In this document: positions 7,024 to 62,034 of the stretch, in pieces
Numbering within the stretch: the first letter of the stretch is position 1
How the letters are laid out: the number at the start of each line of letters is the position of its first letter
DNA from: Isurus oxyrinchus
Taxonomy: Eukaryota
Length of the DNA: 64,000 nucleotides
Assembly (NCBI GenBank): GCA_026770705.1
Contig: JANJGN010000001.1
Span: 38,378,001 to 38,442,000, forward strand
Reading direction: 5' to 3'
Made by a program: the position numbers and the translations under genes
The notes under the pieces: generated by a model
What the model saw: only the letters and a program-made list of their open reading frames with translations
Told to the model about the DNA's origin: nothing
The model's database searches: none

Positions 7024-7304
7024 TGTTGTGTGTGCCTGCATGCCATTGTAATGTAAAGGTGCTCGGCAGAGCAAGAGTTAACATGGGACTGGAGAATAGC
7101 ACCACCCATGGTATGACATATAGAGTCACATGGTAAAAGACCAGAGAACAATTTAGAAGGAACCAGCCTGCATGGGAGCGGCACCATGCATGGCAGTAAC
7201 TGGGATCTATACATAGATAAGGATTATCAATAAATAGTTCATGTTTAGACATACAAATCTCAAGATCTCAATAATGAGACACGAAATCAACCCATAACAC
7301 AACA
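7024..7304 (+). repeat. 5' LTR of element 1 (281 bp)
   Basis: TG...CA ends with an 8-bp terminal inverted repeat and an internal AATAAA. Its first ~100 bp recur at 11123-11222. Confidence 0.85.
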
Positions 7305-7989
7305 TGGTGATCAGCAGTGGCATGAAAGGTGGCATTCAAATGATGAACTCAGAACAGAATCCCAAGAAATGAAAAAATAAAAGTAGCTGAAGCCTGACCA
7401 GAGAGATGTGCACCTAGGAAGAAACATTGAAGAAACAGTTGAAGAAGCTTCCCTACAGAGTTGCAAGTTAAGGAATCCACCAGAGTGAGTGGTGGCCCAT
7501 TGTAATATCCTGAGTCACGCAGTGAGGAACCTGGTCAGGTCACAAGATATGTGAGAAAAATTACGAAAAAGAGACCCTGAGAGATACAGAGTGAAGGAAC
7601 CTAATCAGATCACGGGACAAGTGTGCAAAATTACAAAAATATCTGTACTTACATTGTTGAATACGTAGCAGTTCCAGGGGCTCAGCATCCAGAGGGCAGC
7701 TGAAAGAGAGCTGCAGAAGGTGCCTAGAGCCGGCACCATAACACGTATTGGATGTACTGCTCTGAAGTGAATTTTTTAAAATAAGAACCTGCAGAGTTTA
7801 AGTAAGAAGAATCACCCTGAAATTGGTTTTACAGCTCTGAGGAGCAAATTGCTACATTTTTAAAAGTTTTAAAAAAAGGAAATGGCCTATGATGATGAAG
7901 GAGCCTGCCAAACCTGAATCAGTGTGGGAAACTCACAAAGAGAAAACCTACAGCCTGAGGGAATAAAACAGATAGCCTTATAGATGCAG

Positions 7990-8330
7990 TGGCATTTAAA
8001 GGTGCAACCAGTACAAAAAGAAACAGCCAAGGACAGAAAATTAGGAGAACCAGACCCATTTTGGATAAGGAAACAGCTAAACCAGACCCAAGAGTGGGAG
8101 TCTTCGAGAAGGGGATTTTTTGTTTACAGGAGAATTACAGGGTTAAATAAGGAATCACAAGAAGTACAAATTGATGTGTTTTTATTCGTTTTTGTTTCAT
8201 TTGCAGTGAAGTACTCCACAGCCAACATATAGATCAATACTCGATTACATTTGGTGAGATATTGAAAGTCTTTGACGGATATTATAAACTCCAAGTTGTG
8301 GAGAGCGCAGAACCTAGAAGAAGGTCTAGC
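7990..8330 (+). pseudogene. Gypsy gag N-terminal remnant
   Basis: PDPF...QEWESSRRGFFVYRRITGLNKESQEVQIDVFLF resembles the P.PF..EW..W..RF..YR...L....E.QI..LL start of Gypsy gag. Confidence 0.55.
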
Positions 8331-8359
8331 ATACCACCCAACAAAGTGCCATGTGCAAC

Positions 8360-8455
8360 AAAAGACCCTCAGTGAGGGCAACAGAAGAACCTAGAGCAAG
8401 GGAAACAAAAGACCCCAGAGTGAGGGAGACATAAGACCCCAGAACGAGGGAGACA
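8360..8455 (+). repeat. 24-bp tandem repeat, 4 copies
   Basis: Units at 8360, 8384, 8408 and 8432 (consensus nAAGACCCCAGAGTGAGGGAGACA). Confidence 0.85.
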
Positions 8456-8499
8456 ACGTTCAAGTATACCACAGGATGGTTGCCGACCATGTCAGTGCA

Positions 8500-10330
8500 A
8501 TGAAATGCATGAACTGAAGTGTTAGTGCAGAAGAAAGAAATGGCTAAGAAGCAGCCAAAAGGATTAAAAATAGAGCATTTTGAAAATGCTGACACAGTAA
8601 ACAAACTACAACAGGAGATTGCAGTGCCTAGTGAGCAGATGGCTATGAATGAAGGAAAACTACCTGAGGTAACGCAAAAGAAGCAAAACATGCAAAAAGT
8701 AAATTAAGCTTTTCTACAGGAAAACATTCACATCAGAGCTGAACTGGAAGATTTGAAGTGCAAGATTCAAGCTGAGAAAATGCACGATAAACTGAAATCT
8801 TCAATGAACTAAGTTGTTCAAGATCTGAACAAACAGATTTCAATAACGACACAAAGGATGTAAATGCATTGGAGGCAGCTCAAAGGAGGTTTACTAGATA
8901 GATACCTGGAATGAGTGGGTTGTCTTATGAGGAAAGGTTGGACAGACTGGGCTTGTTTCCACTGGAGTTTAGGAAAGTGAGGAGTGATTTGATTGAAGTA
9001 TACAAGATCCTGAATGGCCTTGGTAAGGTGGATGTAGAAAGGATGTTTCCTCTTGTGGCTGAGTCCAGAACTAGGGGTTTCTATTTTAAAATTAGGGGTC
9101 ACCCTTTTAGGACAGAGATGAGGAGAAATTTTCTCTCTCAGACTTTGGAATTCTCTGCCTCAGAAGGTGGTGGAGGCAGGACCATTGAATATTTTTAAGG
9201 CAGAGGTAGATAGATTCTTGTTAGGCAAGGGAATCAAAGATTATCAGGGTTAGATGGGAATATGGAAATTGAAACACAAGAAGATCAGCCATGATCTTAT
9301 TGAATGGCTGAGCAGTCCCAAGGGGCCAAATGGCCGATTCTTGTTCCTATTTCTTATGTTCTAAAGTTATCAGGAGGAAATAATGACCCTCAATTACATT
9401 GTTGGCAAATCAAAGCAGGAGTTGGGAAAACTCAAACCAGATGTACAGCCAGGCAAATCAGCAGGTGGAAAGTCACACAAAGAAGTTGTGACCCTGAAAG
9501 ATTCCTTGAAGAATCAATATGTAGCCATGGAAAAACATGAGGAGCGAAAAAGGACATTGAATATTACTTCAGAAAAACCTGCATTGGAATTATCAGTTGC
9601 AACAAACAATACACTGAAGCCCAGCGTGAATTGGGAAGAGGTCAACAAGAAAATAAACAGTTGAAAGAACAGTTGATTGTCCATCAAGATCAAATGCAAA
9701 AGAAGTGCATAACCATTCAGCAACATGAAGAAATGAAGACTGTCTTAAACAGCAGCATGGAAGAACAGCAGAATAAACTCAAGGAGGCTCCACTGAATTG
9801 CAGGAAAACTCAAGATGAGCCAAGTGAGCTTTATAAAGAATAGAAAAGCCTGTTGAGAGACCTTCACGTGCTACAAGGATCCCTCAGGTCAAAGTTTGTT
9901 CCTCTGGAAAATTACAGGGAAGCAACATTAATTTAACGTCACTCTGAACAAACTGAAGGACAAGTTGTTAGAGAAGACTCAGTAATGTTTCATAGTCCAG
10001 GAGGAAGCCCAAAGCTACAAGAATAAGACTGAAGAGTTAAAGAACCAGCTGAATGAAAAAAGGAGGCATTGAAAGGAAAAACTGTAGAACTTTCCAAGTT
10101 GCGAGTGGATAATGAAGTCATGAGTAGCACAATTACAGAACTAAAACAAGTTAAGACTTCACCGGAGACAGACCTGGCCAACAGTGAAACCAAATTAAGG
10201 ACAAGAACAAAGTCCTGTCGCAGACAGAGAAAGAAAAGACAAAAGTGAGATTGGAAAATGTAAATCTGACACTGAAGCATAACAAACTAAAAAAAGAAAC
10301 AGCACTGGGTGTCTCAGATATACTGAGCAC
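8500..10330 (+). pseudogene. Captured UACA/RAI14/ANKRD24/ANKRD35-like coiled-coil sequence (degenerate; CR1 inserted at 8857-9362)
   Basis: DKLKSSMN*VVQDLNKQISITTQ|SYQEEIMTLNYIVGKSKQELGKLK; SLKNQYVAMEKHEERKRTLN; ENKQLKEQL..HQDQMQKKCITIQQHEEMK; LQGSLRSKFVPLENYRE. These are colinear with the UACA coiled coil as I recall it (e.g. NQYVPVKTHEEVKMTLN). Confidence 0.7.
8857..9362 (+). mobile_element. 5'-truncated CR1 LINE inserted in the element 1 cargo
   Basis: MSGLSYEERLDRLGLFPLEFRKVRSDLIEVYKIL. 3' tail TTCTTATGTTCT. AAAG direct repeat at 8853-8856 and 9363-9366. Confidence 0.9.
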
Positions 10331-10851
10331 CATTGAGCTGATTGAAAACATTCATAAGATTGTAAAATGATTTGAAAATAAAACAGTAAATGAATGTTTG
10401 GCTGAAATTGTGAAACAAGTGGAAATGAAGATTCCATTTGCAAAATGGCAACATCCAGCAAGAACATGCAGGACTCCATGGAAAAAGAGAATTTGAGTCT
10501 AAGCTAGGACTGAATGGAGTGCACAATCCCCTTGGAAGGAACGGGACAAACTCGCAATGTTGGAAAAAAGCAGACGGGTTGTTAACAAAGAGAAATGCAA
10601 CTCGAAGGAGCACTAAAAGCAAATCATATGGAGATAACCAAGTACCAGAAACACAGAGTACTACTATCATTCCTCCAAATGAGACAGACCGCGATGTGGA
10701 GGAACTGTAAAGCCTCATGGCTGTCTGAATTTATGAAGTCAGAGACTTGGCGTGGGGGAGAATGGATAACAAGTAAAGATTGTATTGTAAATAGCTATAC
10801 TCCTTTAGAAGGGAGGAAAGTTTTCCTTTGAGAAGAAAGGAGATGCTGTGT

Positions 10852-11067
10852 TTTTTAAATTCATTTTATGGGATGTGGGCATCGCTGGCTAGGCCAACAT
10901 TTATTGCCCATCCCTAGCTGCCCTTGAGAAGGTGGTGGTGAACTGCTTTCTTGAACTGCTGCAGTCCATTTGGTGTAGGTAAACACATAGTGCTGTTAGG
11001 GAGGGAGTTCCAGGATTTTGACAGTGACAGTGAAGGAACAGTGATATATTTCCAAGTCAGCACGGTG
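10852..11067 (-). mobile_element. Family-B LINE 3' end inserted at the start of the element 1 3' LTR
   Basis: TTTT..ATGGGATGTGGGC...ATTTATTGCCCATCCCTA.TGCCCTTGAGAAGGTGGTGGTG, the same 3' end as at 21380 and 54258. Confidence 0.9.
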
Positions 11068-11719
11068 AAAAAAAAACACAACATCCCCCTTTTTCTGAGA
11101 AGAAAACTTTCCTGCCTTCTAACGTAGTGTGGGCCTGCATACCATTGTCATGTAAAGGTGCTCAGCAGATCAGGGGTTAACATGGGACTGGAGATGAGCA
11201 CCACCCACAGTATGCAGAGTCAGCCACACTCATGCTGGCTGAGCTAAAAATTCTGCCCATAAGCTCAGGATAGATAGTAATTGCAAAAAAGAGCCCTGAG
11301 AAATTGTGAGAAAATAAGTGAAACAAATTAATAGATGAACAGGGATCGTTGGTTGCAGGAAAGGGCAGAGTGGATGCAGCTGCTCCAGAGCCATATTTTA
11401 TCAACATCCAGGCTTTGGCTTCATCTCCAGTTGATGTGGGCTTGGGTTGGTGTCAATCTGGGGGCCCAGAATTGCCCTACAAAGGAGTAATCTAAAAGCA
11501 GCCTTCGAGCATTTATTTTTCTACAAAATCACTTCTCCCAAAGAATAATATATTTTTTTTGTGCTTTCTTTTTAATTCTTTGAGTCACCCTTTAAAATGC
11601 TTTTGAAAATATAATATTAATATGGTTACAATTGTTTAAATCCAGTTGAAACCCACATTCTCTGCAGTATCCCAGGGTCAAGTACAGTAAGCTTGTCATA
11701 TCTGTCCCCCCTACGGTGT

Positions 11720-11733
11720 GTTGCCATGGAAAC
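11720..11733. promoter_or_regulatory. RFX X-box consensus motif
   Basis: GTTGCCATGGAAAC (reverse complement GTTTCCATGGCAAC) in apparently non-repeat sequence. Function not shown. Confidence 0.4.
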
Positions 11734-11779
11734 AGGGTCAGGTTGTGAAGAGGGGAGGTAGAAACATACTACTGTTTCA

Positions 11780-12462
11780 TACCACATGTCTGTCCTTGGC
11801 TTACTGCATTGTTCCAGTGAAGCCCAACGCAAACTGGAGGAACAACACCTCATCTTCCGACTAGGCACCTTACAGCCTTCCGGTCTGAATATTGAATTCA
11901 ATAACTTTAGGTCGTGAGCTCCCTCCCCCATCCCCACCCCCTTTCTGTTTCCCCCCTTTTTTCCCCCCCTTTTTTTTCCCTATAAATTTTATAGATTTTT
12001 CTTTTCCCACCTATTTCCATTATTTTTAAATATTTTAAAATCTTTTATGCTCCCCCCACCCCCACTAGAGCTGTACCTTGAGTGCCCTACCATCCATTCT
12101 TAATTAGCACATTCGTTTAGATAATATCACCAACTTTAACTTTAACACCTATGTGTTCTTTTGTACCATTGTTACTGACATCTATTGATGATCTGCTTCT
12201 ATCACTGCTTGTTTGTCTACACAAGCACCTCTGTCTCTCTCTCTCTCTCCTCCCCCCCCCCCCCCCCCCCCCACACATACACCTTAAACCAGCTTATATT
12301 TCAACTCTTTCCTGGACTCGAAATCAAGTTCTGTCGAAGGGTCATGAGGACTCGAAACGTCAACTCTTTTCTTCTCCGCCGATGCTGCCAGACCTGCTGA
12401 GTTTTTCCAGGTAATTCTGTTTTTGTTTTGGATTTCCAGCATCCGCAGTTTTCTTTGTTTTC
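11780..12462 (+). mobile_element. Penelope-like element 3' end (GIY-YIG endonuclease C-terminus + pLTR)
   Basis: HMSVLGLLHCSSEAQRKLEEQHLIFRLGTLQPSGLNIEFNNFR, then a pLTR ending GACCTGCTGAGTTTTTCCAG...ATTTCCAGCATCCGCAG. Confidence 0.88.
12327..12365 (+). ncRNA. Minimal type I hammerhead-like motif in the Penelope pLTR (variant core)
   Basis: AGTT-CTGTCGA-AGGGTC atgag GACTC-GAAA-C-GTC-AACT, with stem I AGTT/AACT. The core deviates from CUGANGA. Confidence 0.5.
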
Positions 12463-13311
12463 TACTGTTGTTCCATTAGGTAATCCAAACAATAGTGCTG
12501 GATGGGAGCAATTGCACTCCTTCATTTTTAGTTGTTGGAAACTTAATTTCCTTTTTAATACATAATTGGTGAACTGAGTAATGTAATTTACAATCTTCAC
12601 CAGTTTTGGTGGGCACATTGGTGTTAACGTAATTTGCCAGCCATGCAGGGTGGATGGTAAAGCCAAACAGCTAAGCAACCTATTTTTAAAAAAGAGAAAT
12701 CTCACTTAGAAACCGTCCCTCCAAATTTTTAGCTGTTGCACCCAGAATCACAGAGGTAATTGCACTTCAATAAGCTGCGAGCAGCTGACTGAAACTGCTC
12801 AAGACCCAGCATTGTCTGAAATCAATGCAGCCTTTTGGATAAGTAACTACTCATTGAACTGCACAAAATAACCAGCATGCGTAATGTGGTGTGGCCACAT
12901 AATTTGGCTTTGCAGTGCTGGTGGTTTTGGTGCTAAACCATTTGAGGTAAAAAATGGTGGGGTTGCCTATGTAAGGGTGGCCAAGCTGCTCCTATTGTTG
13001 GTAGAGTTGATCAGCAGACACTCCTTGGGTGGAAACATTAAGTTTATTTACAATGTACTCAGCAGCAACCACACGTGTGCTTTCAACTCCAACTCTATCT
13101 CTGCACTGACTGCTCAGGTAGCTCATACTACTCTCCTATTGGTTACTACAGATCACATGATCTTCCCTAACACGTATTATTCTTAAAGGTACATTACTCA
13201 CTAAATAAAACCATAATTACTACATTCCTCCCCATTCAACTTGGCTATACAGATTATATTTACAAGTACATATTTTTCAAGACCAAATAATATTTACACT
13301 GGATGAGGAGT

Positions 13312-14770
13312 TTACAATTTCAGTCTTTCAGGTGGTTTCCTGGTATGTGTGGAACGTCGCAGTTCCACAACTTCAGAATCTTTGTCAAGAACCTCCTTTT
13401 CTGGAGTTGCCTGAACATCAGGTGCTTCGGTGAGTACTTGTAGTTCTATATCCTCAACTCTTACTGGAACATCAGACTTGTCTGTCCTGGGTCGAGTATC
13501 CTCAACAGGAAATGCAGATCCAGTCATGATCACTGGTGGAACTAAATCTTGGTGATTTGTCTCTCCCTTTTTTAAATGGTCCACATGTTTACAGATGATC
13601 CAGCCTTACACCTCCACGTGGTAAGATAGAGATCCAGTCACTGCACTTATTTCACCTGGTAACCACTTTGGTCCTTCCCTGAAGTTTTTCATGTATGCCG
13701 GCTCTCCCATGGTAAATTTCCTCTGGCGACTATGCCAGTTGTGTCTAGTTTTCTGGCTTCCCTGACTCCTTTCCACCTTCCCCTCTAAATTCAGCATTAT
13801 TAAGCTCAATTTCATCCTGAGACGGCGTTTCAACAATAACTCCGCAGGTGTGACACCTGTTGTTGTTTGAGGGGTAGTCCTGTAATGAAAAAGAAAGCCT
13901 GCTAGCTTGGTTGCCAAGGAATTGCCAGTTAGCTTTTTCATGCCTTCCTTGAGCGTTTGAACTGCCCTTTCGACCAGTCCATTTGAGAAAGCATGGTACA
14001 GTGCAGTTTTTACATGAGTGATACCACTGAGGCTGATAAACCATTGAATCTCAGCACTTAGAAATGCTGTGCCGTTGGCGGAAACAACTACTTCTGGTAG
14101 TCAGGGAATAGCAAAACTTTGACGTAGTTTGTCAATTGACTTCACCTCATATACGTCCAACCATTTCAAATGGGCATCGACAATAAGCACAAACATTGTT
14201 CCCAGGAAAGGTCCAACAGAGTCAATGTGTAACTACACCCAGGGTCTACCTGGCCACTCCCATGGATGTAACAGAGCTGTCACTGGCAACTCTTGCAGTT
14301 GTTGAAATTGCATACAGCGCTTTGCTAAACTCTCTAATTCGCCATCCATCCCAGGCCACCATGGATAGCTGCGTGCTATGGTCTTCATTTGGGAAATTCC
14401 TGGATGGAGACTCTGTAGTTCAATCAAAAGTGGCTCCCTTTCCTTTGAAGGAACTATCACTTGTGCTCCCCACAATAAGATGCCATCCTGGCTATTTCAT
14501 TTCATCAGATACGGGCTCCTGTGACCAACCATACAGCACTTGTTCTCGCACTTGAGATAGGATTGGGTCCCGACTTATTCAATCTCTGATCTGTCAAGCA
14601 CGTACTGGCAAGGAATCTAAGGAATTTAACAGTGAAACAAGTTCCTGTGGAACTGAGACACACTCATCATTTTCTTGTGAAGGCAAACGACTAAGGTCAT
14701 CAGCATTTACGATTTGATTGCCAGGCCTATGTACGAAAGTGTATTCATATGCTGCCAGAATTAAAGCCCT
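13312..14770 (-). pseudogene. Gypsy RNase H C-terminus + integrase (frameshifted)
   Basis: RALILAAYEYTFVHRPG..NADDLSRLP; LHPGISQMKTIARSYPWWPGMDGE (Zn-binding region); FLFHYRTTPQTTTGVTPAELL; LRRSTHTRKPPERLKL*. Confidence 0.9.
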
Positions 14771-14897
14771 GTTAGTATCTCTGTATCTTCTTTCCACGTG
14801 ACCTTCTTCTTTCTAGCGCAGACTTTAATCTTGGCCATCTTTTTGACTTCACTATTGGCCAAACTTCACTCAGATGCAAGCTCCACTTCTCTGAGCT

Positions 14898-15255
14898 TTA
14901 TTTTTCATTCGTTCATGGGGTGAAGGCATTGCTGGCTAGGCCAGCATTTATTGCCCATTTGTTCAGAGGGCATTTTAAGAATCAACCGCATTGCTGTGGA
15001 TCTGGAGTTACATGTAGGCCAGACCAAGTAAGGACAGCAGATTTCCTTCCCTAAAAGGCATTAGTGAATCAAATGGGTTTTTACAACAAGTGGCAATGGT
15101 TTTGTGGTCACCATTAGGCTTTTAATTCCAGGTTTTTTATTGAATTCAAATTTCACCATCTGTCATGGTGGGATTTGAACCCAGGTCCCCAGATAACTAC
15201 CCTGAGTCTCTAGAATACCAGTCCAGTGACAATACCACTATGCACTGCCTCCCCC
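14898..15255 (-). mobile_element. tRNA-headed SINE made of the family-B LINE 5' end plus 3' tail
   Basis: A-box-like GTGCATAGTGG and B box GGTTCAAATCC. The body matches 53845-54113. The tail GGGCAATAAATGCTGGCCTAGCCAG matches family-B 3' ends. AGCT flanks both sides. Confidence 0.85.
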
Positions 15256-15425
15256 AGCTCAGTGGCTGAGTCTCCCAAAATTTAATTACCTGTCTGCTTC
15301 TTGGAAAATTCTACAGCTTTTGCTTCCAAAGCCTTTTTGACTTCATTTAGCTGATTCTTCAGTTCTTCTGCTCTTTTTTGTATTTGTTTGCTGCCTCCTG
15401 GAAAATAGAACATTGCTGTGTCTTC

Positions 15426-15581
15426 TGGATCTGCACCTAAAGTGCTGTAAGCTACAGGGCTATGGGCCGGATGCAGGAAGGTGGGATTAGAAAAGGCACC
15501 TGGGTGTCCTTGGGCTGACATGGACAAGATGGGCTGAATGGCCTCCTTCTGTGCTGTAACTTTTCTATGGTTCTATGGTTC
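15426..15581 (+). mobile_element. Short CR1-type 3' tail insertion
   Basis: GATGGGCTGAATGGCCTCCTTCTGTGCTGTAAC followed by a (TTCTATGG)2 tail. It interrupts the cargo. Confidence 0.8.
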
Positions 15582-15899
15582 TCTGCCAACTCATTCTTCA
15601 GCTTGTTTGGAGAAGTGCTGAATTCTTTCTGTTTCTCTTTATACTTTTCCAGAGGTACAAACTTTGACCTGAGGGAATCTTGCAGTCTGTGCTTGTCTTT
15701 TAACAAGTTCTGTTTTTCCCTGTGAATGTTGCTCACCTTGTCTCAATCTCTGTCATCAAGCAGGGTCTCTTTGAGTTTCTTCTGCTGTTCTTCCAGGTTT
15801 TCACTTAAGACATCCTGCATTTCTTCAGGTTGTTGAGTTCTTACACATTCCTTTTTCAAAACAGGAACGCTTCTAGCTTCCTTCTGGAATCTCAGTGGC

Positions 15900-16234
15900 C
15901 AATTAAGGTTGTTTTCCCTTAACCAATTTCACCCTAGAAGGCTTGGTCCTCTGCCTTTCAATACTAACACTGGTAGCTTTGCCAATTGGCTTCCATAATG
16001 GACAGTTACTCTGCTTATGCCTTTTACTTGAATGTCTTCACCCATATAGGTTTTTAGTTTGGCAGCAGCTTCTTCTAAATTTAATTCATGTTCGCCATTT
16101 TTCAGATATCTGAAGGTATGTTCCCCAATTACTGTAGTGGAAGCTCCCGTGTCCACTTCCATTCTAACAAGTTTGCTATTTACTTTCACTGTGACAAATA
16201 TTGGTTCTGTCTTTCCAACTTTCAGGTTAAACAA
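15900..16234 (-). pseudogene. Gypsy aspartic protease
   Basis: VRMEVDTGASTTVIGE ... GPSLLG*NWL, where the stop is probably a CGA>TGA change in LLGRxWL. Confidence 0.9.
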
Positions 16235-16339
16235 TGAGTAAGTGTCTAAATTTGTTGCTTCAGGCTCTTCTACATTGTAGATTTTATTGGGCTTCTTCTT
16301 TTGTTTACAAGCCTGCTTGAATCTTTCCTTAGTGTCTCA

Positions 16340-17080
16340 CTATATGTCCATTTCTATGACAATAGTAGCACTTGATTGTTTTAAACTGCCAATCGTTAAA
16401 AGACTGATTGCTTCTGCCTCTATTAAAATTATCCTTCCATTTTGCTGCTAAGTTATTTTTCTTTATTCTTCGGCTAGCAGGTTTCCCACTTCTCGGCAGA
16501 GTTTTACATTTTCACACTTTTTTGGTTGGGGTTTCCTGCCTGATGTGGAGGACGGTGCCATTTTGCCTTTGAATCTCTTACTGCACCTTCCATGGCCAGT
16601 GCTATCTCTAGCACCTTCTTGATATCCAGATTCACTTCAGAAAATAATCTTTTCTGAATAGTGTCTTCTTTCATGCCACAAACTAAACGATCTCTGAGCA
16701 TGTCATTTAGAGTTGTACTGAAATAACGATGTTCCATTAGCTGCTTTAAGTATGCCACGTAGCATGCAATTGTCTCACCCAGGGCTCTATTTCACAAATT
16801 AAACCTGAACATCTGCTTCGTGACTGAGGGCTTTGGTTGAAAAAGACCCTTTACAAGGTCCACCAGTTCACCAAAATACTTTGGAATCTGGGGCACTAGG
16901 TACCGTCAAACTTTGAATCAGACTGTAAATTTTGTTCCCAAAAGCGCTTAAGAGGATTGCTTTCCTCTTCTCTTCTCCCGTAATCTCGTCTGCTTGAAAA
17001 AAGAACATGAGGCATTCTATGTAATGAGGCCAATTGTCTATAGCTGGTTCAAAAGGATCAATTCTCCCAAAATGTGGCAT
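16340..17080 (-). pseudogene. Gypsy gag
   Basis: MPHFGRIDPFEPAIDNWPHYIECL..FF.A..I..EEKRKAILLS; LNDMLRDRLVCGMKEDTIQKRLFSE. Confidence 0.9.
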
Positions 17081-17889
17081 TTTGAGAGGGGATTATTTCC
17101 TCGATTCTAAAGGAGCTTGCTATTTACAATCACTGGGCGAGGTGCAGTGCCAATTTCTTTCTAACTTGATTTCTTGTGTCTAATCTTGTTTTATCCTCCT
17201 TATTGTAAGGTTGGCTAAGTTGCTACTATTGTTGATAGAGTTGATCAGCAGACACTTCTTGGGTGGAAACATTGAGTTTATTTACAATGTATGATTGTAC
17301 GTGTGCTTTCAAATCCAATTCGATCTCGACACTGATTGCTCAAGTAGCCCACATTACTCTCCTATTGGTTACTACAGATCATGTGATTTTCTCTAACAAG
17401 TATCATTCCTAAAGGTATATTACACACGAAATAAAACCAAAATTACTCCATTGCCACTCCCACCAACTTCTTCTGCGGTCTGCGCCGATTGACATGCTGT
17501 GTAGGACAATAGTGCAGGCTCCTTGTGCATATGTGGGAAGAATGCAGAGTGAATGGATTGTCAGTCAGTGCCTTGGTGGCCAATCTGACGTTTTCAACCC
17601 TGTTGTTTCTGTTAATTCCCTGGCTTAAACATGGTAATGTGAACATGATTCAGCTGCACAGGCCGTCACCACCAACACCACACCCCCTCCACCCCTTCCT
17701 CCAAGAGGCATTGCCCAACAATTTGCAAGTAAGGCACTTTTATCTACTTGCTTTTGCAAAGTTAGTGGAAATTCTATGTTATTGGAAGAGTTGTGAGAAG
17801 TTGTTGGGTCAGAAGAGAGTGGTGCTGGGAAATTAAGAAAGAGTTGTGTATTTTTGAAAGGCTACTGAGTTCACCACTTCTTTGCAGTC

Positions 17890-36734: not shown

Positions 36735-39700
36735 AGCAGAATCATCCCAGATTTGCACAAAGTGCAGTAGCGGCCGAGAAAAAGGATGTTTTACCCACTG
36801 GCTGCAATGGCGGATTTTCATGCTGTGTCGTCCCATTCCCAGTGCCTCATTCATAATGCATTCATGGGAAACACGCCGGATCGCTGGCAGGCAGGCTCGG
36901 GTTTCCACACCCCACCATAACCTCAGCACTTCCTTGCTCCTAGAGTCATATTTAAAGTGTACCAGAGCACAGACTACTCTACAGATCAGGACTATTCCAG
37001 GCAACATATGACCCCAAAAGCAAAGAAGACGGCAGCCCCCAAATTTAGTGACGCTTCACATCAGCAGGGAGAGGTCCCAGACTGGGGATGGAGTGGTCCA
37101 CATTAGGACCCTCACTCACTTTGAGGAGTGTGTCATCGCACTGACTGATGAGGATGTGGACTGTACCTGCTGGATGCAGTGGAAGGCTGCCGCAATGTCC
37201 TTTATCCCCACTCTGGCTGCAGAAGGTTCTCCAGAGTCACCAATCCAGCCTGGGAGGCAGTGGCAGTGGTGGTCAGTGCCACTGAAGCACAGAGGAGGTT
37301 AAGTCATCCGGTGCAGGAAAAAGATGAATGGTCTCATCTGTTCTGCCAGGGTAAGTCAACCACCTCATCACTCGCAACTCACATACTCACTAACCAATCA
37401 CATCCACAGAGATCTCACACGTCAAGGGAAAACACCACTAATTCTCACACACACCCTCACATCTCCATCAGGCTCATACCCTCTCAAGCTCGCGTCCTCA
37501 TCCCATCCATGGCTCTGCTCACCACACAAACATTCCACACAATGCCATGTGTCCTGCTCACACTCTCTCCATCTGTTTTTATGCAGGAGAAGCATGCTCA
37601 CATCAGCAGGGAGAGGTCCCAGACTGGGGATGGAGTGACCCACATTAGGACCCTTACTCACTTTGAGGAGTGTGTCATCGCGCTGACTGATGAAGATGTG
37701 GACTGTACCTGCGGTGACGTTGAGGTTGGTGGCGAACACTTATGTAAGGACCCTGCAGCATATCATCCCTCTCTCATTGCAACTGTGAGTGCTCTCTCTC
37801 CTGTTTTTGACTCTGCTGCCATGCACTAATTCTCTCTACTTTGGTTCACAGGGAGCTCTGCCAAGCGACTGACGCCCTCACCAGCCAGTCCCCCAGCTCC
37901 ATCCACATCCTCACCTCCAGCCAAGAAGACATCTCCTCCATTGAAGAACTGGCACAGTGCTTTACCCACACCCTCCACCAGCACAGAGACGCACATCTCA
38001 GTGGGACCCAAATGTAAACCAGGCTCAGGTTCACATTCTGGTGGTCACCGCATGGACATGTGTCCGCAGCAGGAGGAAGCAGGTTCAGCCGAGCTCCCTA
38101 GCACTCCAAGGGCTGCTCGGAAAGAGTCAACTGTGATATCTGAGTCAGATGACGAGCTTCTGGATTTGGCCTTCCAACTCATCCTGAAGAGTCATCAGAA
38201 GGCGGGGGAACATCACGCAGAGCTGGTGGAGGCCCTCAACAGAGTGGCACGTGAATCGGAGGACTGCGTCTGCCTGCTCTCTGATGAAGTGGTGCCCACA
38301 TGTGCACAAATGGAGGTCTTCATTGGGAGGATGGTGGACGCCATGGAGACCTTGGTCCACCAGAATGCGTAGATGTGCACAGGCTCCATTGCGGTAGCCA
38401 CTGGTGAGTTCTAACAGTGAGTTCTAACAGTGGCAACGCAGGTGGGAAAAGGGGCACCTTGACGTCCCTCCGGTGCTCCTTCTTCGCAAGGAGCCAGGCC
38501 GAGGCCCTCAGGCACCCGGAGGGAGGACACCCCTGGGTCATCCACTCAGGAATCTCAGAGGCTGTCCTCTTTGTCTGTGACTCACTCAACCTTGTTCTCT
38601 CTCACTGCAGAGGGAGTAACTGGCCCACAAGAGGACAGTCAAAGCAAGCCAGGGCCTTCAAGACCACAGCTCTCCAGAGGATCCACATTAAAATCATCAG
38701 AGGCAGCAGGGCCAACCATTCCACAGGTTGTCTCCATCCCTGCTGCAGATATCAGGGCAGCACCGAGAAGAAATGGTAGGCCTAGAAAAATTAAGAAATT
38801 TTGATAACAAGTGGTTGCATGGGTGAACATAGTTTGTCATTTTATAATCTGCAAATATGTTTGCTTTCACTGCATAATGTGTAATGGTGATTTTCAGCTT
38901 CATTTACAGGATTCATGGGCCCTCCTACTGCACCCTCCCTACTAACAGTTCAGCTGCACGTAGCCAGACCACAAGTGATTCTGGAGGGAGAAGTGTGTGT
39001 ATGGCAGGGCCTTTCGGAGCCTCATGCAAACACTCTCCCACACACACACAGCCTTCATCCATTACATTCATCTCAATGTCCTGAGTATTTTGAATGCTGC
39101 CTGCTGGGGTTCTCTTTCAATTGTCCATCTGAACTGACCTGCATCTCCGCGCACCCACTGATCACACTCCCATGCAGCACCTGTGCCCATCCAACATGAG
39201 GCTCCGCTCACTTTCGATTTTGACAGTCATGATAGCTGTTAAGTTTCTGATCAGTTCCCCACCGGTCCTTTTCCCTCCCAGGCATCTCCCCACCGTCATC
39301 TACCAACCCAAACTCTTTTCGTTCCAGGAAGTCCAGCTGGATGTGCACATTCCCTATCTTCCTGTGAATCCCACCCCTATCCACATTGGCCTCCCAAACC
39401 TTCTCCTTCCCACCCCCAGGGCCCGTGTCTGCCTCCGAGTACCCGCCAACCACTCTAGCTGTCCTTTCTGCTACTGTCGCACCCTCACCCTCCTACCCTT
39501 CCGCTCACTCTGCTGCCTCTCAGACTCACTATTCTCTCCTATCATGCCCACCCTCAATTCGCTCTCAAGAAGGAAGTCATTGACTCCACAGAACCCTCCC
39601 TTGCACGGTCACCTGGACATCTCCTCCACCCCTACTCCCTCCTCCCCCCCAGCCACCTTCCTCTCCCCAGATTCCTTCCCCCTCCAAACTCCTTCCCCCT

Positions 39701-61254: not shown

Positions 61255-61760
61255 CCAATCTATAGGATTAACTGTACTGCTGATACTTATGAGTTTTCAA
61301 TGAATCACATATCTCTAGGTTTGCTAACTCCACTTGGAGGCATTCCTTGAGGTTTGATTATGTTACACTCTGATAGCATGATATCTAACCATTTGATGAT
61401 GCCTGATCATGCAACATTCAATCACATGACATCTACAAATGTTATTGCATTAACCTTGTGAAGATTGGGTCCCCTGTAGTTAAGCATTTTTGCTCCTCAT
61501 TTCACACCAGCAGCTATTGTGCAGCACGTTCTAAGGAGGCCCCTGGTAAGCAGGTGAAACTGAAAGACCCTCCCAATTCCAGAGACCCCGCATTTTACAA
61601 TACAACCCCTCAACTGCTGAGATTCCTTAATTGACAACACCATGATTCCCAAGCCCTCCCGATTCCTGTCTCTCTGGCCCCTTGTCAACAATGCTTCACA
61701 TGGTCGTGGCTCCCTATGAGTGATGTCATCAAGCCTGAGGCCTATCGAACACCAGCCAGT

Positions 61761-61882
61761 GACATCTCGGAGGGAGGTCTGGGGCAGAGGCTTGATAGCT
61801 CGGAGAGGGGTTTGGGGCAGGCACTTGATATCTCTGAGGGGGCTCTGGGGCAGGGGTTTGATATTTCGGAGAGGGGTCTGGG
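61761..61882. repeat. 33-bp GC-rich minisatellite (~3.7 units)
   Basis: Consensus GATATCTCGGAGAGGGGTCTGGGGCAGGGGCTT at 61761, 61794, 61827 and 61860. Confidence 0.85.
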
Positions 61883-62034
61883 ACTGGGACTTGGGGGTGC
61901 TCTGCAATGAGAAATTTTCATTGCTATACCTGCCGGGCTGCTGTGGCAGTACTTGGGGAAGGGACTGTTGGTTCTGTGAAGCTTGCATATCCCACATACC
62001 AAGCTTAGCATACAATAGATGTAGGTAAACATTG

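Follow-up and report, generated by a model that had tools for sequence, protein, structure and literature searches.

Host coiled-coil gene pieces carried by two long terminal repeat retrotransposon families of the shark Isurus oxyrinchus

The window analyzed in this work, a stretch of 64,000 nt from Isurus oxyrinchus (assembly GCA_026770705.1, contig JANJGN010000001.1, positions 38,378,001 to 38,442,000, forward strand), contains two long terminal repeat (LTR) retrotransposons, element 1 of family 1 on the + strand and element 2 of family 2 on the - strand, and both carry sequence of host origin, the cargo. The capture history of this cargo, including its donors, their order and the transfer between the families, was reconstructed with high confidence. 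Both families are non-autonomous, and pieces of host coiled-coil messenger RNA (mRNA), joined in one frame, stand in for some or all of their pol. Both window copies were decayed, as were all copies examined of the two families, and were broken up by later insertions. The segment shared by the elements was 68% identical over 289 nt (9695-9975 on the + strand vs 15858-15579 on the - strand) and 75% identical in a second stretch (9972-10098 vs 15426-15300). The LTR types had only words of 10 nt or less in common, and no gag match between the families was found. The LTR pair of element 2 (12968-17450) was 83% identical. The first-pass annotation of this DNA had described two elements with dissimilar LTRs and different gag types, sharing a homologous segment that differs more than the LTR pair of element 2, and these observations all held.

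The main donor was identified with a profile of 12 natural cargo open reading frames (ORFs), which gave 8 protein matches, 7 of them named UACA (best E 5e-76, 60% identity); a single short family-2 cargo as query returned no protein homologue. The cargo had been called UACA-like before, and both cargos indeed came from a 2.7-kb exon of host UACA. This exon (on C25; 2,715 nt, open frame of 911 codons) was 98.8% identical to P0002, labeled Carcharodon, and the copies used its nt 853-2403, with recurring ends and differing internal deletions. Three further donors, EEA1, ninein and TPR, had been missed, and the cargo is a four-gene chimera. The pieces flanking UACA were four exons of one gene on C13, whose last exon matched the EEA1 FYVE structure (E 8e-19). 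The longer family-1 copies scored above the cut-off for TPR domain PF25481 and matched whale-shark TPR and sawshark ninein. Their TPR piece, about 600 nt, crosses six consecutive host exon joints with the introns gone, and two EEA1 introns are missing from the element pieces, which indicated that the TPR and EEA1 pieces derived from mRNA. The UACA piece and the ninein piece (270 nt) each lie within a single large host exon. Since UACA sits within the EEA1 piece, it was probably added after EEA1. The EEA1 FYVE domain and the UACA ankyrin repeats were not captured. All four donors encode long coiled-coil proteins, a class that makes up 2-8% of proteomes in the available part of one survey (PMC1322226), and coiled-coil mRNAs were purine-rich (A+G 62-69%). 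Structural comparison gave only generic coiled-coil look-alikes at low recognition in the ESM Atlas and no PDB match for the ninein-TPR piece. A single-sequence fold of the protease-cargo ORF of one family-2 copy (L014) contained long helices over the cargo and was not used as evidence because of its mean predicted local distance difference test score of 51. A weak second ninein match (30% identity), possibly a paralogue, was noted in L096/L111 (G000:C2, about 108.96 Mb).

In family 1, a gag-like start and a linker are followed by EEA1, UACA, EEA1, ninein, TPR and an integrase-like tail (Table 1). At least two donors were present in 48/48 family-1 copies and all four in 33. Element 1 itself has all four, with TPR and ninein shortened, and its cargo (8498-10439) is much longer than first described. 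No pol sequence was present in element 1. Its start and tail are tentatively labeled gag and integrase from their likeness to such motifs, and family 1 is a putative Ty3/Gypsy family; a Pfam integrase match for the tail was not found. LTR pairs with primer-binding site and polypurine tract were detected in 15/20 and 10/18 fetched family-1 copies, and the 3' LTR of element 1 is both truncated and broken in two (91 nt matching). Two copies (L077, L090) showed a shuffled order, from EEA1 to the UACA 3' end, to EEA1 with a ninein stub and then back to UACA nt 919; the scored joints were in frame. In family 2, a 135-codon sub-piece of the cargo lies in frame behind the protease in place of the reverse transcriptase (RT) core. 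Natural family-2 ORFs run from protease into cargo, and gag and protease share one frame in natural copies such as L008. Long family-2 copies resume after the cargo at an RT segment matching Ty3 RT residues 249-311 (E 3e-9), while in the window subtype the RT thumb is also missing, together with most of RNase H. The domain order protease-RT-RNase H-integrase was assigned by Pfam and was complete in the parent copies described below; with the paired LTRs, the 5-bp target-site duplication and the polypurine tract, it identifies family 2 as Ty3/Gypsy. In this way, the intact RT core was lost to cargo in family 2, and family 1 has no pol. These structures supported the proposed amplification as non-autonomous families. 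The suggested position of the cargo behind gag applied to element 1, with its gag-like start, but not to element 2, where the cargo follows the protease.

The cargos of the two families proved to share one origin. Across both families, 41 scored copies had an identical 450-nt UACA deletion, and family 2 and element 1's subfamily had the UACA-to-EEA1 joint and an EEA1 remnant in common, which argues for one capture series passed between families instead of two captures. A protein tree was built from 9 host rows and 25 of 78 copies chosen by coverage, with mammal, reptile and carpet-shark rows left out, and was rooted on two outgroup rows (ray, P0007). All cargos formed one clade (99.9/100), in which family 2 grouped with element 1's subfamily as its sister (90.7/97). 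The cargo clade attached at the unresolved lamniform/carcharhiniform base, after Heterodontus. A second capture from the host lineage was rejected (approximately unbiased (AU) test, 13 rows, p=0.012). On the other side, the tree by itself did not reject family-1 monophyly (AU p=0.056, 13 rows), so that the direction of transfer rests mainly on the common joints. From these sequence comparisons, one family likely handed the cargo piece to the other, family 1 to family 2. It is extremely improbable that the UACA exon was captured twice or that the cargo is an independent mobile element. The cargos are just 68-75% identical, as two captures would allow, but the common deletion and joint, the single clade and the AU test contradict the repeated independent capture that had been offered, and support its alternative, passing between retrotransposon lineages. 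As for a mobile cargo, the joints are microhomologies without termini or duplications seen, and no cargo was found outside LTR elements, the family-1 copies being multi-donor and the family-2 copies lying in one backbone. None of the three contrary outcomes named in the first-pass annotation (no UACA match, a single-locus cargo, an independently mobile cargo) occurred.

A hybrid third family was represented by L226-L229 (e.g. L229:2938-6885, sense coordinates), with the family-2 LTR and 3' half and a different 5' region. These loci hold 33-nt tandem repeats, a variable repeat spacer and UACA nt 1442-1581 at 84-89% identity to window element 1, and this family-1-like UACA piece suggests a second exchange between families.

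The RT-bearing parent of family 2 was traced with backbone queries. Among loci found via the protease, 28/29 had a UACA match and the remaining one had the cargo start; among those found via RNase H, 22/29 had no cargo, and 10 of these 22 had the RT catalytic motif. When 16 cargo-less loci were fetched in full, they showed the family-2 backbone at about 80-88% identity and, in most, the family-2 LTR; judged by sequence, they are the RT-bearing parent of family 2. Net divergence between family 2 and this parent was -0.001 in gag, 0.001 in RNase H, 0.002 in integrase and 0.036 in nucleocapsid-protease, the protease excess sitting in the last ~150 nt, beside the cargo. Net divergence of the family-2 cargo from element 1's subfamily was 0.177. 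With the backbone at about zero from the parent and the cargo at this distance from element 1's subfamily, the cassette seems to predate the backbone that now surrounds it, though part of the difference could come from a donor lineage that was not sampled.

Each cargo query gave more than 3,200 candidates at first look; 40 matches were scored, and all 40 were at 83-90% identity with the self-match excluded. Exact motif matches genome-wide numbered at least 391 for family 2 and at least 112 for family 1, compared to 0 for reversed-motif controls. Since the motifs were present in just 24/58 sampled family-2 copies and 2/47 family-1 copies, the true number is likely about 1,000 or more per family. 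The median LTR distance was 0.13 in family 2 (14 pairs from 20 copies, of which L129 and L135 may be other repeats), 0.16 in element 1's subfamily (15 pairs from 20 copies) and 0.19 in the longer family-1 copies (10 pairs from 18 copies). L068, a tandem duplicate of L077, was removed from the copies before counting. The near-identical copy pairs L025/L026 (41 kb apart) and L066/L068 (10 kb apart) are probably segmental duplicates. Related proteins of both family types were annotated in Cetorhinus, and those of family-1 types also in Scyliorhinus torazame, as expected if the origin is old. Seven 'uncharacterized' or 'hypothetical' shark proteins (P0009, P0010, P0012, P0014, P0015, P0021, P0026) are apparently element copies annotated as genes. 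In three runs guessed to be RNA, 131, 177 and 95 contigs matched the element 1 cargo at 80% likeness or more, and some spanned chimeric joints; these strandless contigs, from family members or host mRNA and possibly passive, are a weak hint of transcription.

The reading frame was surveyed in 78 copies, with 1191/1425 observations (84%) in frame inside segments as background. All 17 joint types seen two or more times were modally in frame, as were 3 single-copy types, while single joint observations (238/288) equaled the background and 25/32 unclassified joints were in frame. In a held-out set of 29 loci found via the 3' tail, 28 had cargo, 111/141 observations were in frame, and 2 new recurrent joints were both in frame, which gave 19/19 recurrent cargo joints overall. 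Two TPR deletions (L269, L270) were out of frame; their breakpoints differ, so they are single-copy events, and they were counted jointly as one miss (19/20). Given a chance in-frame share of 51-75% for microhomologies among the donors, the p value was 3e-5 to 0.024. Exact microhomology runs were about 3-13 nt at donor-donor joints, with a short A-rich match at the cargo-RT joint. The protease-to-cargo joint was in frame in 42/55 copies. The joints back into pol were in frame in only 4/14 (cargo-RT), 8/30 (cargo-RNase H) and 5/31 (TPR-tail) cases, and the frame ends more than 2 kb before the 3' LTR in family 2 and about 0.5 kb before it in family 1.

No stops were found among 93 element-only family-wide changes, compared to 150 among 2060 private changes (p=0.0025). 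At the residue level, fixed changes had a nonsynonymous/synonymous count of 36/20 vs 357/103 for private changes (p=0.031), a test confounded by transition bias, and the nucleotide tests on element-only branches lost significance with transitions alone. The pairwise net nonsynonymous-to-synonymous rate ratio was 0.22, and was dropped as main test because the within-family baseline by the same method was already 0.47-0.50. The absence of stops together with a marginal residue signal suggested that selection acted mainly on keeping the frame open and much less on the sequence itself, and selection for an open reading frame is very probable. The earlier suggestion that retention hints at a function was borne out to this extent. 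A UACA-specific trafficking or decoy role was not supported, given the weak residue constraint and the large parts deleted in successful subfamilies.

A mechanism consistent with these results is that host mRNA pieces were gathered, likely by template switching of the reverse transcriptase at microhomologies, an established route of capture (PMC5131818) that fits the intron loss and the microhomology joints. EEA1 would have come first, UACA would have been dropped inside it, and ninein and TPR would have been added; the 135-codon sub-piece would then have moved to a second Gypsy lineage, where the cassette may have outlived its backbone as recombination with the parent refreshed the latter. 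A fusion of Gag with a rod may have helped each element to spread as passenger of an intact relative, with lost gag/pol domains replaced by the coiled coil, a generic rod that would be soluble and self-associating. The nascent fusion would join helper particles and bring its own RNA, and the host gene of the rod would matter little. Judged from sequence features, there is roughly an even chance that such a generic rod is the protein-level reason for the open frame; it was favored for the four coiled-coil donors, the interchangeable parts and the out-of-frame tail of family 2. More tentatively, a new structural protein may have been built from host coiled-coil parts, by which a defective RNA enters or outcompetes helper particles.

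Several results weighed against this explanation. With transitions only, the fixed-versus-private comparison gave p=0.58; the depletion of Pro/Gly (p=0.04 or 0.11) and the BLOSUM shift (p=0.02 or 0.09) depended on the baseline; and the host branch was far more conservative than the element branches. The gag-to-EEA1 joint was in frame in just 6/10 and 3/6 cases (9/16), and cargo-to-RT in 5/8 with looser anchors vs the tight count given above. Deletion lengths were a multiple of 7 residues in just 2/9 cases, without enrichment of heptad register at deletions. The family-1 gag piece had no Pfam gag match and showed no zinc knuckle, and an RT-bearing parent of family 1 was not found, 28/29 tail matches carrying cargo. 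Purine-rich coiled-coil mRNAs could also favor one another by microhomology alone.

This last point belongs to an explanation at the RNA level, in which a stop-free cargo keeps ribosomes running and so protects the RNA from nonsense-mediated decay. The protein would then not matter, and the bias toward coiled coils would reflect purine-rich microhomology or mRNA co-packaging at particle-forming sites. We regard it as possible, though doubtful. It accords with the strong stop and frame signal beside the weak residue signal and with the family-1 frame, which runs close to the 3' LTR, and the available text of one human-cell study describes EEA1 mRNA as targeted co-translationally to endosomes (bioRxiv 2020.07.17.208652). 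However, NIN and TPR were not mentioned in one localisation screen, and any coding mRNA would do for plain mRNA protection, which would not require that 4/4 donors be coiled coils. The family-2 frame, moreover, stops directly after the cargo, with more than 2 kb of pol out of frame behind it, an arrangement hard to account for by RNA surveillance alone. A second explanation holds that host-specific jobs were kept for steering or as a decoy, namely the TPR nuclear basket, ninein at the centrosome with dynein, and EEA1 endosome tethering. The donors are located where retroelements pass through, a TPR domain recognized by Pfam is retained in the longest copies, and the element-only changes have a mild conservative bias. 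We consider this unlikely, since most of TPR and ninein is deleted in element 1's subfamily and both are absent from family 2, the FYVE domain and ankyrin repeats were left behind, and the element-stem changes were not conservative (mean BLOSUM -0.09). A neutral passenger, whose in-frame joints arose from codon-periodic microhomology, is quite unlikely as well. Long microhomologies are in frame in up to 75% of cases, the transition-only tests were non-significant, and in the portion available of Tan 2016 (PMC5131818) the longest ORF was in frame in 14/17 young fly retrocopies. These points are set against the 19/19 recurrent joints (p≤0.024, and about 1e-4 at typical microhomology lengths), the 0/93 stops and the mostly out-of-frame joints outside the ORF. 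Host-specific function and neutrality thus fit less well than the generic rod or the RNA-level explanation.

The features of both elements are listed in Table 1. A 36-nt match (86%) joins 10784-10819 of element 1, before the polypurine tract, and 17096-17130 of element 2, before gag. Element 1's subfamily typically has this motif (family-wide likeness about 70%), the longer family-1 copies checked do not, and the match may be chance or a pairing site. Elsewhere in the window, 11782-12461 is a younger repeat with 94-99% matches elsewhere, inserted in several family copies. A 115-nt direct repeat (37056-37170 and 37598-37712, 96%, 542 nt apart) has no LTR-like ends, and 12-852, 1561-1960 and 61760-61891 hold a 310-nt inverted repeat (94%), an 80-nt tandem array and a 33-nt tandem array.

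Table 1. Features of element 1 (+) and element 2 (-) in the window
Feature	Position	Strand	Remarks
5' LTR, TG...CA	7024..7304	+	matches LTRs of other family-1 copies
Primer-binding site starting TGG	from 7305	+	directly after 5' LTR
Gag-like N-terminal remnant, ~95 codons, ends approximate	8021..8311	+	named from position and motif likeness
Short tandem-repeat linker, 23-24-nt units, gag piece to cargo	8337..8455	+	offset self-matches
EEA1 piece A, spliced from three host exons	8498..8661	+	150-nt in-frame deletion
UACA exon piece, nt 853 to ~1070	8654..8857	+	aligned 8654-8841
Later LINE (long interspersed nuclear element)-type insertion	8858..9362	+	missing at this place in other copies
UACA exon piece, nt 1175-1850	9363..10044	+	80% identity to host exon
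UACA exon piece, nt 2296-2403	10040..10146	+	after 450-nt deletion common to family 2
EEA1 piece B	10137..10238	+	85% identity to host exon on C13
Ninein piece	10237..10348	+	first third of 270-nt piece in longer copies
TPR remnant	10334..10439	+	10374-10439 aligned; 10334-10373 inferred from sister copies
Integrase-like C-terminal tail, 3' end approximate	10453..10735	+	frame differs from cargo; tentative, named from likeness
Polypurine tract and broken 3' LTR	10820..11214	+	LTR start ~10845
Insertion inside broken 3' LTR	10850-11068
Inverted tract-region copy inside broken 3' LTR	11071-11128
LTR remnant	11124-11214
5-bp target-site duplication	17451-17455 and 12963-12967		flanks of element 2
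5' LTR	17201..17450	-	family 2
Gag with zinc knuckle, decayed, 3' end approximate	16280..17080	-
Aspartyl protease	15890..16195	-	PF13975, PF13650
Cargo part 1, UACA exon nt ~1495 to 1781	15579..15858	-	in frame with protease
Later insertion	15427..15578		not in sister copies
Cargo, UACA nt 1780-1850 joined to 2292 onward	15256..15426	-	450-nt deletion
Later insertion	14898..15255		not in sister copies
Cargo end, diverged EEA1 piece B remnant	14807..14897	-
End of RNase H, connection, integrase	13309..14770	-	out of frame with cargo in most copies
Polypurine tract and 3' LTR	12968..13234	-	LTR 12968-13224

Helper dependence is known from acutely transforming retroviruses, which carry gag-onc fusions, and from gag-only or gag-protease non-autonomous elements such as TR-GAG. 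Like these, the shark elements combine a helper-dependent genome with host sequence in frame with gag; unlike them, they carry rod segments only, without a catalytic or signalling domain, and are germ-line elements with no env seen. Multi-gene capture by LTR elements is itself already known. In the accessible accounts of maize Bs1, an LTR element holds pieces of three host genes in one chimeric frame (PMC13317346, PMC7264820, PMC5131818). The shark elements likewise carry a multi-gene chimera in one frame, but the Bs1 donors are unrelated enzymes in those accounts whereas the four shark donors are all long coiled-coil proteins, and the shark chimera occurs at hundreds to thousands of copies with many deletion subfamilies and a part moved to a second lineage. 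LTR-mediated animal retrocopies, as far as the available text of Tan 2016 (PMC5131818) goes, replace internal ORFs with partial sense mRNA, with microhomology joints and intron loss. Some of them are multi-gene chimeras, among them a mouse example that joins four genes and an Alu, and further rounds of retroposition occur. The same sense mRNA between LTRs, intron loss and microsimilarity at switch points were all found here. Those retrocopies, in the text available, are mostly young loci, whereas the shark family is old, occurs in two orders, and has repeated in-frame joints and depleted stops. In bdelloid rotifers, extra ORFs are shared between retroelement types (PMC5408684, available sections), as cargo was swapped between unrelated retroelements here; the rotifer cargo consists, in those sections, of ORF3 enzymes or env-like genes that stand separately in elements with pol, while the shark cargo is gag-fused and replaces pol. 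A published description of an all-coiled-coil, amplified and transferred LTR cargo was not found, subscription journals, repeat libraries and supplements lying outside this search. The shark families thus stand apart from known systems in the uniformity of their donors, their copy number and age, the repeated preservation of the frame and the passage of cargo to a second lineage.

These elements provide a well-replicated natural record of how LTR elements shuffle exons in a vertebrate, with five captures from four genes and about 12 later deletions through which the frame was kept, and they demonstrate the movement of cargo between LTR lineages with unrelated LTRs. Copies annotated as genes can confound analyses of UACA, TPR, ninein and EEA1 in sharks. 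The hundreds to thousands of datable copies make it testable whether host cargo is selected for the element or merely carried. If the more tentative reading of a new structural protein is true, a portable module colonised an unrelated Gypsy lineage and persisted as a cassette while the backbone was replaced, and the families would represent a defective-interfering strategy with a captured protein as its driver, one that has endured across shark orders.

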